Shown in pieces: positions 59,041 through 64,000 of a stretch of 64,000 nucleotides of DNA (positions are counted from its first letter, which is position 1; each line of letters starts with the position of its first letter). The position numbers and the translations under genes are program-made. This DNA comes from a phage: NCBI GenBank assembly GCA_018027755.1, contig GCA_018027755.1_4098.1. One strand, written 5' to 3'. The notes under the pieces are model-generated. The model was not told where the DNA came from. It did no database searches and saw nothing but the letters and a program-made list of their open reading frames with translations.

Positions 59041-59145
59041 TTAAAAGTATTTGTAGAAAGTACTTGCACAGTACTGAAAAAAGCGTATAATGTTTTACAT
59101 CGAGAGCGGGAACACTTCCCTACTCACTTTTAAGAGATTAAAACG

Positions 59146-59508
59146 ATGGCGACTCAAATCACTAAAATCATTGCTAACCTGGTTAACTTCCGCGACGATA
59201 TGAAAGATCTTCCGGCGGCAACGGTTAAAACTCACATTGACGCATACCGCGAACTGATTAAAATGCTGCCGCTTAAGCGTGAACAATACGCCGCCACCGT
59301 GATGCTTGATGCGATGATCCATAAGATGATCGCCAGTGATTTGACGATGGTTTATCAGTATATGGGCGAAAATTTCGCGGTGTATAGTAAACCAGTACCA
59401 GGAATGGAAAGTACAGAAGTATTACACGGTTTAAATTTAAAACAAGATGCATGGGATAATATGCCTCGTTTCCTGGTATGGGCTGACAGTGGCAAAATTT
59501 ACGAATAA
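59146..59508 (+). CDS. hypothetical protein (early module)
   Basis: Consensus promoter plus leader hairpin upstream; GC-richer codon usage in the 5' two-thirds. Confidence 0.6.
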   Translation: MATQITKIIANLVNFRDDMKDLPAATVKTHIDAYRELIKMLPLKREQYAATVMLDAMIHKMIASDLTMVYQYMGENFAVYSKPVPGMESTEVLHGLNLKQDAWDNMPRFLVWADSGKIYE

Positions 59509-59522
59509 GTTTTAGAAAGTAC

Positions 59523-59550
59523 TTGCAAACTAAGTTTAAAAGCGTATAAT
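59523..59550 (+). promoter_or_regulatory. consensus promoter
   Basis: ttgcaaactaagtttaaaagcgtataat, followed by hairpin gtggggaatagttccccac. Confidence 0.65.
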
Positions 59551-59600
59551 GTTTTACATCAGGTGGGGAATAGTTCCCCACTATATAAGAGGATTAAAAA

Positions 59601-59840
59601 ATGGCTAAATCAAAAATGTTCTTAGGTCACAAAAACAAAACTCATTGGAATGTAAGCCTTTGGATTAATAACGATGAGTCATTGTACCGGTTGGCCCTGG
59701 ACTTTATTGCCGCCAATACTAATCGCAATGATGCGGCCCGTCATATGATGTTATTTTTAGAACAGACTGGACAAGATAAAACACCGGACGGATTCAAATA
59801 TAGCACTACTGCGATCCGTGCGGCGATGGTTGGAATGTAA
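59601..59840 (+). CDS. hypothetical protein, paralog of 61645..61884
   Basis: Shared GHKNKTHWNVSLWINNDESLYR...TPDGFKYSTTAIRAAMVGM. Confidence 0.65.
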   Translation: MAKSKMFLGHKNKTHWNVSLWINNDESLYRLALDFIAANTNRNDAARHMMLFLEQTGQDKTPDGFKYSTTAIRAAMVGM

Positions 59841-59926
59841 TAGAATTTATTTAAAGTACTATCATTTTTTTGCGATAGTACTTTATAATAGTGTTTTATT
59901 CATACACCAACGATAAGGGCAACAGC

Positions 59927-60193
59927 ATGAATATTAAGTATTTTGCGACGCGTGAACAAGCTCGGATCGCCGCTCGCCAGGACGGGGCAACGTTTAAAGA
60001 TATGGGCGTACAATCGGAACGTGGTAAACGTTGGGCCATTGTAAAGCGTAGTACCGCCAGATCATTACAGTACTGGTTAGCGGCCTTAAAAAGTCCCGAT
60101 AGTGTATCGCGTCGAGTGGTAGAAATAAAGCTCGACCGAAAGGGCAACCGCGTGACCGTGTACCGTACTAAAAAGATTGCAGTACTTGAATAA
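59927..60193 (+). CDS. hypothetical basic protein
   Basis: Track ORF 59891..60193; start moved to ATG after AAGGGCAACAGC. Confidence 0.5.
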   Translation: MNIKYFATREQARIAARQDGATFKDMGVQSERGKRWAIVKRSTARSLQYWLAALKSPDSVSRRVVEIKLDRKGNRVTVYRTKKIAVLE

Positions 60194-60200
60194 AAAGTAC

Positions 60201-60228
60201 TTGCAAACTATGTTTAATGGCGTATAAT
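60201..60228 (+). promoter_or_regulatory. consensus promoter
   Basis: ttgcaaactatgtttaatggcgtataat, followed by hairpin gcgggaacacttcccgc. Confidence 0.65.
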
Positions 60229-60281
60229 GTTTTACATCGAGAGCGGGAACACTTCCCGCCTATAACCTGGAGTAATAAAAA

Positions 60282-60512
60282 ATGACTAATATGTATATGA
60301 CTGAAGTTAAAACCGTAAAAGATACTACCACGAATAAAACTACTTACTTACAGCGGATCTGCGGTGTATGGCAACGTATCAGCAAATCAAAGTACTTTAA
60401 ATTAACATCATATGCAAATCGTTCGGATTCATTCAGTACTGAAATAAAAGGTAATAAAGTACACCAATACGGCACTTATTATTATTACAGCCTGGACGCG
60501 ATTGCAGTATAA
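60282..60512 (+). CDS. hypothetical protein
   Basis: SD GGAGTAATAAAAA upstream. Confidence 0.55.
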   Translation: MTNMYMTEVKTVKDTTTNKTTYLQRICGVWQRISKSKYFKLTSYANRSDSFSTEIKGNKVHQYGTYYYYSLDAIAV

Positions 60513-60764
60513 TCATATTTTTTGAAAAATTTACAATTGCCGGTATTGACTTATTTTGTCAGTACTGGCATAATGTATTCATTGGCAGATAAGCCGTAGC
60601 CCATAGGGTGCGGGAGTGTATCTATAGAAAAATTAGTTTAGTATAGTTACAATTGTGCACCCGGTGGGTTAGCTGTTGTCATGGGGTATATTATGCCAGT
60701 ACTTGATAATGCTGTCAATACTTTTTTTTAATATTCAGTACTGAAAACTATTTTTAAAAAGTAC

Positions 60765-60791
60765 TTGTAAACTATGTTTAAAGGCGTATAA
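60765..60791 (+). promoter_or_regulatory. consensus promoter
   Basis: ttgtaaactatgtttaaaggcgtataat. Confidence 0.55.
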
Positions 60792-60882
60792 TGTTTTACA
60801 TCAGGACGGGGAACGAAATAAGTAACTTCCCGTTAAGTAGCCCAGGAGTAAGGCACACGAAAAACTCCCCTGATAAAATAGT

Positions 60883-60910
60883 TTGACAATAGAAAGTAAA
60901 AGCGTATAAT
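60883..60910 (+). promoter_or_regulatory. sigma70-type promoter
   Basis: ttgacaatagaaagtaaaagcgtataat. Confidence 0.6.
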
Positions 60911-60942
60911 ACTTACATCAACTACTGAATGAGGGTTACAAA

Positions 60943-62288: not shown

Positions 62289-62510
62289 ATGGCTAATATC
62301 ACTACTCTTTCCCAACTGGAAGCACTGGTGAAATCTATGCGGGAACATGCCGACAAAATCGGCGTACAAGATCCAGCCGTTTGCTTCTGCGACGAATTGA
62401 ATGATGATACCCTGGTAATAGCAGAAGTCCAGGACGTTTCTAACTATTCCTCGCGTTACACTGGCGGCGTAGCAAATAAAGGCGACTTCTGTTTATACCT
62501 TACAAAATAA
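62289..62510 (+). CDS. hypothetical protein
   Basis: Track ORF trimmed to MANITTL after GAGGAAAATAAA. Confidence 0.55.
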   Translation: MANITTLSQLEALVKSMREHADKIGVQDPAVCFCDELNDDTLVIAEVQDVSNYSSRYTGGVANKGDFCLYLTK

Positions 62511-62678
62511 CAACGCGGGGAGATAATAACTCCCCGTTACTTTTTCAGTACTGAATCATTTAATAGACGGATCTCGGCACCCGGTGGGTTAGTGACTGTT
62601 TCGTCTTGATGTAGTAATTATGCCAGTACTGGATGCACTTGTCAACAACTATTTTTCAAATACTTTTTATTAAAATAC

Positions 62679-62706
62679 TTGCAATTAGTTTTTAAACGCG
62701 TATAAT
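62679..62706 (+). promoter_or_regulatory. consensus promoter
   Basis: ttgcaattagtttttaaacgcgtataat, followed by hairpin gggggagcggttccccc. Confidence 0.65.
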
Positions 62707-62754
62707 GTTTTGCATAGGGGGAGCGGTTCCCCCTGGTAACTAAGGAATAATAAA

Positions 62755-62991
62755 ATGCTTGAACAAATCAAATCAACGACTTCGAATGTAACGGGAACGG
62801 TAGCACACTTTACTAGTGATGAATCGCGGGGCGTACCCTATTGTGCTGTACATGTAAACACTGATGGCAACTACTGGTTTACTGTTTACGGATCATATTC
62901 CTTTGGACGACCAGGGCATCAAAAAATTCTGGATAAAGTACAGCCAACGGGTAAAAATATCACTGCTGAAATGTTTTATAAAAAATCATAA
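62755..62991 (+). CDS. hypothetical protein
   Basis: SD AAGGAATAATAAA upstream. Confidence 0.55.
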   Translation: MLEQIKSTTSNVTGTVAHFTSDESRGVPYCAVHVNTDGNYWFTVYGSYSFGRPGHQKILDKVQPTGKNITAEMFYKKS

Positions 62992-62995
62992 AGTA

Positions 62996-63024
62996 CTTGA
63001 TAATAGTTTTTAGTACTGTATAAT
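62996..63024 (+). promoter_or_regulatory. consensus promoter
   Basis: ttgataatagtttttagtactgtataat, followed by hairpin gggggagcggttccccc. Confidence 0.65.
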
Positions 63025-63075
63025 ATTTTACATCGCAAGGGGGAGCGGTTCCCCCTGGTAACTAAGGATAATCAA

Positions 63076-63375
63076 ATGAAAATTGCAATCATCGCCCTGG
63101 CTTTATCTGTTTCCTCTTTCGCTGTTAATGCGTCATTAGATGTAAGTAGTGAAAAATTCATTCAGTGCACTGTTGCAATGACCGATGAAAGTACTGGCGA
63201 GATTGTATTAAAGGATTTAGAGATCAAGCCGGAAGCATTTAAAAACGGCCCGTTCCATGAAGAAGACGAAAACGGTAGTACAACAATTTATTATGATGCC
63301 AGTACTAAACGCGGTTCGGTCACTGTAATGGATACTGAGAAAGTAACTCATACTGGCGTTATTAATTGCCGTTGA
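63076..63375 (+). CDS. small secreted protein
   Basis: Signal peptide MKIAIIALALSVSSFAVNAS; Cys near both ends. Confidence 0.6.
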   Translation: MKIAIIALALSVSSFAVNASLDVSSEKFIQCTVAMTDESTGEIVLKDLEIKPEAFKNGPFHEEDENGSTTIYYDASTKRGSVTVMDTEKVTHTGVINCR

Positions 63376-63396
63376 TAGATACTACGGGGTAACATC

Positions 63397-63627
63397 ATGA
63401 CTAAGCGAATTGTTTTACTTAACGAAAGCAGTACTACACAACTACTTAACGCCGTGCATTATGATATTGAAACGAGCGTTAATCTTATCAGTACTGTCGT
63501 ACTGTTGGACACTGGAAAGGTCGCCAATGATAAAGCGATTGCAGGTATACTAACGGATCTTGAGCCTGGTAGCAGTGCACCAATAACGTTAAATGGTAAA
63601 GTGTTTAATATTTTACTCACTGATTAA
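63397..63627 (+). CDS. hypothetical protein
   Basis: ORF in track. Confidence 0.5.
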   Translation: MTKRIVLLNESSTTQLLNAVHYDIETSVNLISTVVLLDTGKVANDKAIAGILTDLEPGSSAPITLNGKVFNILLTD

Positions 63628-63634
63628 GTACATA

Positions 63635-63660
63635 GCCCACCTGGTGGGCTTTTTTTGTTT
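63635..63660 (+). terminator. intrinsic terminator
   Basis: gcccacctggtgggc followed by T7. Confidence 0.7.
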
Positions 63661-63710
63661 TTGTAGTATCGTAGTACTGAGATACTTTGAAAATAGTTTT
63701 AAGAAAGTAG

Positions 63711-63738
63711 TTGACATTACCGCAGAAAAGCGTAGAAT
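63711..63738 (+). promoter_or_regulatory. sigma70-type promoter
   Basis: ttgacattaccgcagaaaagcgtagaat. Confidence 0.6.
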
Positions 63739-63861
63739 GTATTACATCAAGACGGGGAGCACTAAGTAGACCGCCAGTAAGTCGAACGAAAAACTGGACA
63801 CGTCGAGAAAACTTTGATACACTAACCAACGTAAACTAAACTTTAATTGAGGATTTATAAA

Positions 63862-64000
63862 ATGGCTAATGTAAAATCATTCATCAAAGCACTGGTAGCA
63901 AATGAAACTAACGTCGCGGCTGAGATCCTGGCTGAACTGGATAACGATACCATGAAAGCGGTACGCAATAATTTTAACATCGCGTACAGTACTGCGAAAG
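63862..64000 (+). CDS. hypothetical protein (3' end outside window)
   Basis: ATG after GAGGATTTATAAA; ORF runs off the window end. Confidence 0.5.
   Translation, partial: MANVKSFIKALVANETNVAAEILAELDNDTMKAVRNNFNIAYSTAK

Follow-up and report, generated by a model that had tools for sequence, protein, structure and literature searches.

A GC-richer block in an Asteriusvirus jumbo phage window matches a mapped terminal repeat and carries promoter-plus-hairpin cassettes

Introduction

The left terminal repeat of phage T5 is its first-step-transfer DNA and carries the pre-early genes. T4-type phages carry promoter-early stem-loop (PeSL) cassettes (Arbiol et al. 2010, PMC2839356; Comeau et al. 2014, PMC4122927), and PeSL recombination gives excised mini-circles, as shown by inverse polymerase chain reaction (PMC2839356). 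Long direct terminal repeats (DTRs) have been reported in Asteriusvirus and Rak2-like jumbo phages, with lengths of 20,993 bp in fEgEco12, confirmed by restriction digest (PMC13070987), 20,668 bp in Sharanji (PMC11895373), 19,736 bp in fENko-Kae01 and 22,456 bp in CBB, and one published repeat assignment is disputed (PMC13070987). Here we analyze a 64,000-nucleotide (nt) stretch of phage DNA (contig GCA_018027755.1_4098.1, hereafter the window) and identify by homology its last 6.6 kb, a block richer in guanine plus cytosine (GC) than the DNA before it, as the beginning of such a repeat, occupied by small genes behind promoter-plus-hairpin cassettes.

The terminal repeat itself is already published. 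The DTR papers give a genome-wide GC figure only, although the CBB paper does mention three RpoD-like promoters in the repeat; the published accounts of these DTRs that we searched contain no description of the composition, CpG signature or cassette of the repeat, and in the literature searched we found neither a description of a cassette common to several phage families nor a paper tying terminal repeats to higher GC content. An earlier note on this DNA had reported the composition shift; the terminal repeat and the repeated cassettes, which the note had not recognized, provide its main structural explanation.

Results

The block aligns with an experimentally mapped terminal repeat

Megablast places the window in Asteriusvirus, a genus of 121Q/PBECO4-like jumbo phages that infect E. 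coli and have genomes of ~350 kb, with Turkey3 (94%), UE-S1 (95.5%) and phAPEC6 as top matches. We compared the window with both genome ends of fEgEco12 (PP777464.1), whose termini come from PhageTerm and restriction digests (PMC13070987). Window positions 57,395-61,647 correspond to fEgEco12 1-4,246 at 93.5% identity and positions 62,191-64,000 to fEgEco12 4,400-6,207 at 97.8%. Position 1 of fEgEco12 (AGTAGGCAGAGGAAGTCTGCC...) aligns with window position 57,395, and the unique DNA preceding the right repeat copy of fEgEco12 aligns directly upstream of that position; the junction at window 57,394/57,395, where the unique right end meets the repeat, corresponds to the right-hand junction in fEgEco12. 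Over the 2,260 bases compared, the repeat copies at the two ends of fEgEco12 do not differ. The block is homologous to this mapped repeat from its first base on. The alignment to the mapped end therefore identifies the stretch as the first 6.6 kb of a DTR, present in the window as a single collapsed copy inside a contig, and by homology position 57,395 would be the physical left end of the packaged genome.

Gene content agrees with this assignment: fEgEco12 genes g01-g11 are the window genes in the same array. The right boundary lies outside the window; near 21 kb in fEgEco12 the spaced small genes give way to packed genes, a change that Asteriusvirus and Rak2-like DTRs have at their right boundary. 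In EC22.5-2, a relative whose unannotated whole genome (351,992 bp, 34.1% GC) served as the genome-wide background, the repeat spans 29,754-51,028 and coincides with the GC-rich block. Further comparisons used 121Q, the rV5-like phage A7_1, the phi92-like phage A150, the Klebsiella phage fENko-Kae01 (Kae01), the Pectobacterium phage CBB and T5.

A promoter-plus-hairpin cassette precedes each gene of the block

Every gene of the block lies behind a near-consensus sigma-70 promoter cassette of ~80 nt, which consists of an A-rich upstream tract, AGTACTTGCA as the -35 region, a 17-nt spacer, TATAAT and then GTTTTACAT, and in its 3' part a GGGG(A)..(T)CCCC hairpin, a Shine-Dalgarno site and the ATG. 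Nine copies occupy 59,054-63,767 of the window (Table 1), with TTGCAA or TTGACA at -35, a spacer of 16-17 nt, TATAAT and an upstream AAAA tract. Cassettes are concentrated in the repeat of relatives as well, with 23 of 26 EC22.5-2 copies in the block and 21 fEgEco12 copies in positions 1-20,993 against none in the following 3 kb. A strict cassette pattern searched in IMG/VR returned Asteriusvirus-sized contigs and one 109-kb contig only, a pattern too narrow to gauge the spread of the element.

Across four phages, 33 of 42 cassettes form a hairpin of -8 kcal/mol or below (median -12.6, z -3.6); these were folded sequence by sequence, a MAFFT consensus fold having failed with its stems out of register. 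The hairpins begin 4-7 nt past the likely start site, and the letters of the stem vary with complementarity kept. Each lies 3' of the -10 box and has no U-tract, and separate terminator-like hairpins follow only some genes (62,515; 63,634). Transcripts would start about 7 nt past TATAAT and carry a stable GGGG..CCCC hairpin near the 5' end, which would stabilise or regulate these short mRNAs; the small genes would form an array in which each is its own transcription unit, and host sigma-70 RNA polymerase would transcribe the array right after DNA entry. The earlier note's term "early module" is reasonable, as the near-consensus cassettes before every gene suggest.

The cassettes resemble the PeSLs of T4-type phages in their strong sigma-70-like promoter, A/T-rich upstream tract and adjoining G-tract/C-tract stem-loop, in their concentration in a hyperplastic region of small orphan genes, and in that the breakpoints of indels, replacements and transpositions between close relatives fall on them. 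Unlike the PeSL stem-loop, which is an upstream terminator, the window hairpin is a 5' leader downstream of the -10 box and, judged by its sequence, does not appear to serve as a terminator or attenuator for upstream transcription. The window array also differs in sitting in a terminal repeat, and its cassette in being common to unrelated phage groups. The likeness to PeSLs described here concerns architecture and breakpoints. With T5 the window phage has in common a long direct terminal repeat, host-promoter-driven genes and a repeat-rich non-coding stretch, which lies at the inner end of the repeat in T5, where the injection stop signal is annotated at 9,140-10,149, and at the outer end in the window phage. 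The T5 repeat has 40.0% GC against 38.6% in the next 40 kb. We saw no genes common with T5, with no direct A1 or A2 comparison made, and neither Pfam nor PHROGs assigns a function to any of the window genes; two-step DNA injection with A1/A2-type pre-early proteins is a feature of the T5-type repeat.

The composition step is carried by coding sequence and recurs in three genera

GC content is 34.3% at window positions 1-57,394 and 39.2% at 57,395-64,000. The earlier note had placed a GC-richer shift from about 59,100, and GC profiling, change-point analysis, gene-wise GC and GC at third codon positions (GC3), and codon counts all bear out the shift (34.3% at 1-57,000 and 39.5% at 59,100-64,000). 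Its real start lies 1.1-1.7 kb further upstream, between the 57,395 boundary and the best single change point at 57,970 (34.3% to 39.7% GC, likelihood ratio 68). The last non-overlapping 4.9-kb interval of the window is the richest, at 39.5% with a runner-up of 36.7%, and GC profiles depart from background both in the window and in EC22.5-2, contrary to the outcome that the note had named as refuting it. The eleven block genes (59,146 to 63,627) exceed the 113 others in GC (0.408 vs 0.342, p=4e-6) and GC3 (0.380 vs 0.286, p=1.6e-4), and seven of the 12 GC-richest window genes sit in the block.

Codon usage shifts accordingly toward the GC-rich codons CTG, GCG, CCG and CGC, which together make up 5.3% of block codons and 1.6% elsewhere (p=3e-13), and CGG is 28-fold enriched in the window block. 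The enrichment that the note had described is real, but these codons do not extend over much of the length of its two example genes, accounting for 9.9% of codons in 59146..59508 and 4.5% in 59927..60193. The switch from GC-rich to AT-rich composition within the gene at 59146 is weak, as the change in total GC from 47% to 38% was matched by 54% of codon shuffles. At codon 79 (window 59,383), GC3 in this gene drops from 0.56 to 0.24, a marginal change that 5 of 300 shuffles reach and that loses significance once about 11 genes are corrected for; the A150 homolog does not show it. A fusion or mosaic origin of the same gene was considered and rejected: a second PHROG covers residues 52-120 only, but the alignment is of one family end to end.

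The homologous EC22.5-2 block (30-50 kb) has 39.0, 39.2, 38.2 and 38.2% GC in successive 5-kb bins and is the GC maximum of that genome over 20 kb, with 39% reached by only 2.6% of 5-kb intervals. Its 54 genes have a GC3 of 0.378 vs 0.259 elsewhere (p=1e-21), and the excess remains among genes of fewer than 150 amino acids (aa) only (0.378 vs 0.277, p=2e-16). Non-coding DNA makes up 27% of the EC22.5-2 block and 9.5% elsewhere; the shift is carried by coding sequence, with 40.8% GC in the window block genes and 35.2% in the non-coding DNA of the EC22.5-2 DTR. By homology the GC-richer stretch extends ~14 kb beyond the window end. The DTR of fEgEco12 has 38.5% GC, with 33-34% in its flanks, that of Kae01, which has the same cassette, 37.3% vs 34.0% in the next 30 kb, and that of CBB, where the cassette is also present, 37.8% vs 35.0% (CpG ratio 1.03 vs 0.90); CpG is not depleted in the repeat of either Kae01 or CBB. 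The CpG ratio of the DTR is 1.09 and that of the unique genome 0.71, and the corresponding TpG/CpA ratios are 1.01 and 1.24. Dinucleotide distance (delta*) between the DTR and the rest is 109, where same-size intervals of the rest average 39 (standard deviation 20), and between DTRs of different genera it is 44.

Cassettes mark sites of exchange and rearrangement

Low-stringency tblastx between jumbo and phi92-like genomes was too noisy to localise sharing, and blastn was used instead. In the EC22.5-2 genome, 15 of 21 blastn matches to A150 fall at 31.4-50.2 kb and have the highest identities, and 11 of these 15 are the cassette. The A7_1 small-gene array (39.7% GC) carries the cassette and four of the block genes. 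More broadly, the cassette is common at the nucleotide level to Asteriusvirus, the Kae01 group, Mimasvirus, rV5-like and phi92-like phages, and it is with the last two groups that the DTR has most of its nucleotide-level similarity. Within the genus, the window is colinear with 121Q up to the cassette at 61,557. Past this point the two differ by gene replacement and relocation, and the breakpoints (61,557, 62,201, 62,669-62,746 and 62,987) coincide with cassettes; indels relative to EC22.5-2 also sit on cassettes. The cassettes would act as portable homology patches, like the PeSLs of T4, that swap small early genes within and between large coliphage lineages. The horizontal acquisition suggested in the earlier note accordingly stands as exchange between phages, given the A150 matches and the 121Q rearrangement at cassettes, and, at the sensitivity of the searches made, fails as acquisition from E. 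coli or a plasmid.

Two host labels encountered in these comparisons look doubtful. "Campylobacter phage A150" (MG065639.1) is classed as Justusliebigvirus and has coliphage early genes and the cassette, and the product of gene 59146 has a homolog at 65% identity in "Enterococcus phage heks".

Candidate causes of the GC excess

We favor an explanation in which the DTR would draw on a shared pool of cassette-linked early genes with about 38-40% GC and no CpG depletion, and resident substitution bias would pull the DTR back toward about 35%. Singletons polarised across six genomes reveal a net loss of GC in the DTR (638 strong-to-weak vs 554 weak-to-strong changes, p=0.016) and an equilibrium GC of 0.354 vs 0.386 now; changes in the unique flanks are balanced (419 vs 412).

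Several observations weigh against this account. The upper confidence limit of the equilibrium GC is 0.381, barely under the current 0.386, and at third codon positions alone the DTR loss of GC has p=0.14. Nineteen of 53 fEgEco12 DTR genes have 30-70% identical homologs in the Kae01 DTR and a GC3 of 0.379, vs 0.367 for the rest; import followed by decay predicts lower GC3 in old residents, so that equal GC3 counts against a gene-pool cause. The GC step is kept in three genera with largely different gene sets, and no clearly GC-richer donor was found, the A150 genome having 37.4% GC and the A7_1 array 39.7%. For the GC-richest gene, 59927, all homologs but one weak match lie within close Asteriusvirus relatives. 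The structural part of the account has its own limits, in that the duplication and exact end are known by homology and the "early" status of the genes follows from promoter consensus. We hold the identification of the DTR and its cassettes with high confidence; the gene-pool cause is the least certain part of the explanation, with the chances for and against it about level in our view, and the whole statement, DTR, cassettes and gene-pool cause together, we consider rather probable.

A serious rival, which we regard as possible but on the doubtful side, is a compositional regime in which a force acting in place keeps the DTR or its early genes at higher GC and normal CpG, for example GC-biased gene conversion as the repeat copies undergo their obligatory recombination in every cycle, or selection on early transcripts, which have to function with unmodified host machinery before phage takeover. 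The sharpness of the GC step at the DTR boundary in three genera and three hosts speaks for such a force, as do the genes common to the Asteriusvirus and Kae01 DTRs, which at 30-70% aa identity still have a GC3 of about 0.38, and the dinucleotide signatures of the DTRs, which are nearer to each other across genera than to their own genomes. Yet substitutions per site occur at similar rates inside the DTR (weak-to-strong 0.052, strong-to-weak 0.094) and beyond it (0.046 and 0.091; pooled counts), the DTR is losing GC, and the T5 terminal repeat is only 1.4 points above its next 40 kb.

Codon usage bears on the selective form of this rival in both directions. The E. coli codon adaptation index is 0.312 in the block vs 0.246 (p=9e-8; weights after Sharp and Li 1987), but GC-ending codons rise alike whether E. 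coli-optimal (x1.75), intermediate (x1.69) or E. coli-rare (x1.59), with marked increases for CGG (x39, from 0.4% to 15% of arginine codons), CCC (x2.9) and GCC (x2.75), and E. coli-optimal AT-ending codons drop in the block. With GC3 rising across the board, E. coli-rare codons included, the pattern speaks against selection for optimal codons, which we rejected. The "different selective regime" that the earlier note had offered as an alternative thus gains from the conserved step and the GC3 of long-resident genes, loses its optimal-codon form and is as a whole neither shown nor excluded.

Ordinary local variation, or a side effect of small gene size and GC-rich hairpins without biological meaning, is very unlikely: the shift is modest, at about 5 points, small-gene stretches at 30.8-34.6 kb and 53-57 kb also have raised GC3, and one same-size interval elsewhere reaches a similar dinucleotide distance, but over 20 kb the block has the highest GC of the whole genome, its GC3 excess persists among genes under 150 aa, coding sequence carries the shift, and in three genera the step lies at a boundary that was mapped by experiment. 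Least credible of all is an island newly captured from the E. coli host or a plasmid that has not yet reached phage composition, an idea prompted by atypical composition shifted toward E. coli and by enrichment of CGG, GCG, CCG, CGC and GGC codons and excluded at the sensitivity used, since the homology searches proposed in the earlier note found no blastn match for 59,100-63,000 in 5,426 complete E. coli genomes and a single match in the plasmid collection (a 137-kb non-mobilizable record at 69% identity, probably an rV5-like phage), protein homologs lie on phage-sized contigs, the window's only tRNA is at 1,519-1,593, none of 10 genes searched has an integrase family match, and the block keeps its position across the genus and in other genera.

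Genes of the block and the ORF-free leader

The block genes are small, on the plus strand and separated by a median gap of 87 nt vs 11.5 nt elsewhere in the window (Table 1). Ten of the 11 proteins were searched, and all fall in PHROG families of unknown function, including two DUF7249 paralogs. These two paralogs account for most of the ~150 non-Asteriusvirus megablast matches, at 75-88% nucleotide identity with rV5-like and phi92-like phages; paralog 1 (59601..59840) has 80-87% nucleotide identity with many Vequintavirinae and Stephanstirmvirinae phages, and paralog 2 (61645..61884) is absent from the corresponding position in 121Q. Homologs of 59146 occur on Asteriusvirus-sized and ~150-kb phage contigs, with 69% nucleotide identity in A150, and homologs of 59927 are 88-99% identical, several on Asteriusvirus-sized contigs, apart from one weak exception (46%, ~1-kb contig). 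The 60943..61554 product, which has a homolog inside the Kae01 DTR, is probably a conserved early protein; its AlphaFold2 model has a predicted local distance difference test score (pLDDT) of 91.4 and no fold match in the PDB. A homolog of 62755 in 121Q (gp272) is placed elsewhere in the array. The label "protein spackle" that 63076..63375 would inherit from fEgEco12 is unsupported, with no sequence match to a PDB chain at E<=1. The terminator at 63,634-63,650 is annotated at the homologous place in UE-S1.

Table 1. Coordinates of the features of the terminal repeat portion of the window
Position	Strand	Feature	Basis or detail
57395..64000	+	First 6.6 kb of ~21-kb DTR	Homology to fEgEco12
57395..59145	.	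Leader free of open reading frames (ORFs), 1.75 kb, 38.7% GC, many repeats and CAGTACTG palindromes	No credible ORF
57399..57415	+	Hairpin GGCAGAGGAAGTCTGCC, 4 nt inside inferred genome end	Terminator-like scan
57753..57796	+	Cassette-type promoter without downstream ORF	TTGACT-16-TATAAT at 57,760-57,787, 11/12 consensus
58173..58316	.	Tandem 8-nt array (CTGGATGG / CTAGACGG), ~18 units	Period 8, 16/24/32 multiples
59054..59134	+	Promoter + 5' hairpin cassette, upstream of gene 59146	-7.7 kcal/mol
59146..59508	+	Gene, 120 aa, phrog_7352, GC 42.7%, GC3 0.455	PHROGs
59513..59587	+	Promoter + 5' hairpin cassette	-14.2 kcal/mol, z -4.7
59601..59840	+	Gene, 79 aa, DUF7249 / phrog_871, paralog 1	Pfam/PHROGs
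59927..60193	+	Gene, 88 aa, phrog_8127, GC-richest window gene (47.9%)	PHROGs
60191..60265	+	Promoter + 5' hairpin cassette	-12.0 kcal/mol
60282..60512	+	Gene, 76 aa, phrog_5293, GC 34.2%, sole block gene at background GC	PHROGs
60755..60821	+	Cassette, long-loop hairpin	Repeat family and folding
60,883-60,910		Second, perfect sigma-70 promoter (12/12 consensus)	After cassette 60755..60821
60943..61554	+	Gene, 203 aa, phrog_5162, function unknown, SGFWSQGDGA motif	PHROGs
61557..61631	+	Promoter + 5' hairpin cassette; 121Q colinearity stops here	-15.2 kcal/mol
61645..61884	+	Gene, 79 aa, DUF7249 paralog 2	87.9% nucleotide identity to A7_1
61942..62202	+	Gene, 86 aa, phrog_19040	CAGTACTG-type promoter + hairpin upstream, 61,888-61,927
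62201..62275	+	Promoter + 5' hairpin cassette, rearrangement breakpoint	-12.4 kcal/mol
62259..62510	+	Gene, 83 aa, phrog_33522	Then terminator-like hairpin 62,515-62,537
62669..62746	+	Promoter + 5' hairpin cassette, rearrangement breakpoint	-13.6 kcal/mol
62755..62991	+	Gene, 78 aa, phrog_9227	81% nucleotide identity to A7_1
62987..63061	+	Promoter + 5' hairpin cassette	-14.1 kcal/mol
63076..63375	+	Gene, 99 aa, phrog_31669, hydrophobic signal-peptide-like N-terminus (inspection)	
63397..63627	+	Gene, 76 aa	Then intrinsic terminator 63,634-63,650
63701..63767	+	Promoter cassette (TTGACA-16-TAGAAT) of next gene, running off window	UE-S1: 483-nt coding sequence downstream

The leader carries no annotation in 121Q or UE-S1 and hardly any in fEgEco12, and has no Rfam match at E<=1; at Rfam gathering thresholds the whole window yields nothing except one tRNA. 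The hairpin next to the genome end is identical to fEgEco12 5-21 and has a perfect 6-bp stem (GGCAGA GGAAG TCTGCC), and may be part of the terminase cutting signal or of end recognition. The 8-nt array is a local GC peak (49.5%). Its GGA every 8 nt gives it a loose resemblance to CsrB-type protein-sponge RNAs, with no Rfam match.

The palindrome TCAGTACTGA occurs in 61 copies window-wide with at most one mismatch, vs 2.4 expected. They cluster at 57316-59076 and 60434-62632, precede the inferred genome end by 12 and 72 nt, and are often found inside the promoter spacer directly upstream of TATAAT or AATAAT; the palindrome looks like a candidate operator or activator site built into promoters. 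At 58707-58783 on the minus strand, a ~50-nt element lies downstream of a sigma-70-like promoter (TTGACT-16-TATAAT), and related copies occur at 58491-58544 and 62568-62645. Salmonella phage 7t3 and Erwinia phage Kaldavass, otherwise very distant genomes, have this element at 94-96% identity; it may be a conserved antisense or small RNA start.

Two gene groups upstream of the repeat also have unusual composition. At 52959-57121, the right end of the unique genome adjoining the repeat, a packed run of ~16 plus-strand genes of roughly 60 aa each has negative GC skew, strongly positive AT skew and raised GC3 (0.26-0.45), with overall GC near 33%. On the minus strand at 38540-52874 lies a set of paralogs, twelve with about 380-450 aa and another with 245 aa, labelled RCC1-like "regulator of chromosome condensation" in relatives, with unusually high GC at second codon positions (0.40-0.58) and very low GC3 (about 0.2).

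Discussion

A broader and more tentative reading, to which we give somewhat less credence than to a compositional force acting in place, is that Rak2-like DTRs form a separate evolutionary compartment with a mobile early-gene pool, portable cassettes and a signature of their own, namely a GC content 3-5 points higher and neither the CpG depletion nor the TpG excess seen in the rest of each genome. In such a compartment, the pool may turn over faster than its genes decay to resident composition, or the repeat may escape CpG depletion or be corrected against it, for instance by GC-biased conversion between its copies.

In this phage group, the GC and CpG step together with a dense series of AGTACTTGCA...TATAAT cassettes identifies the terminal repeat, and with it the early genes and the physical end of the genome, a landmark for which the sequence alone suffices. 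Such a landmark is of practical use: start points are arbitrary in most deposited Asteriusvirus genomes. The block is a likely site of host-takeover and anti-defence genes in these poorly understood 350-kb phages, and shows how such genes move between phage families. If the compartment signature is general, these repeats would provide a test case for weighing recombination-driven GC bias against gene-pool turnover in phage composition.

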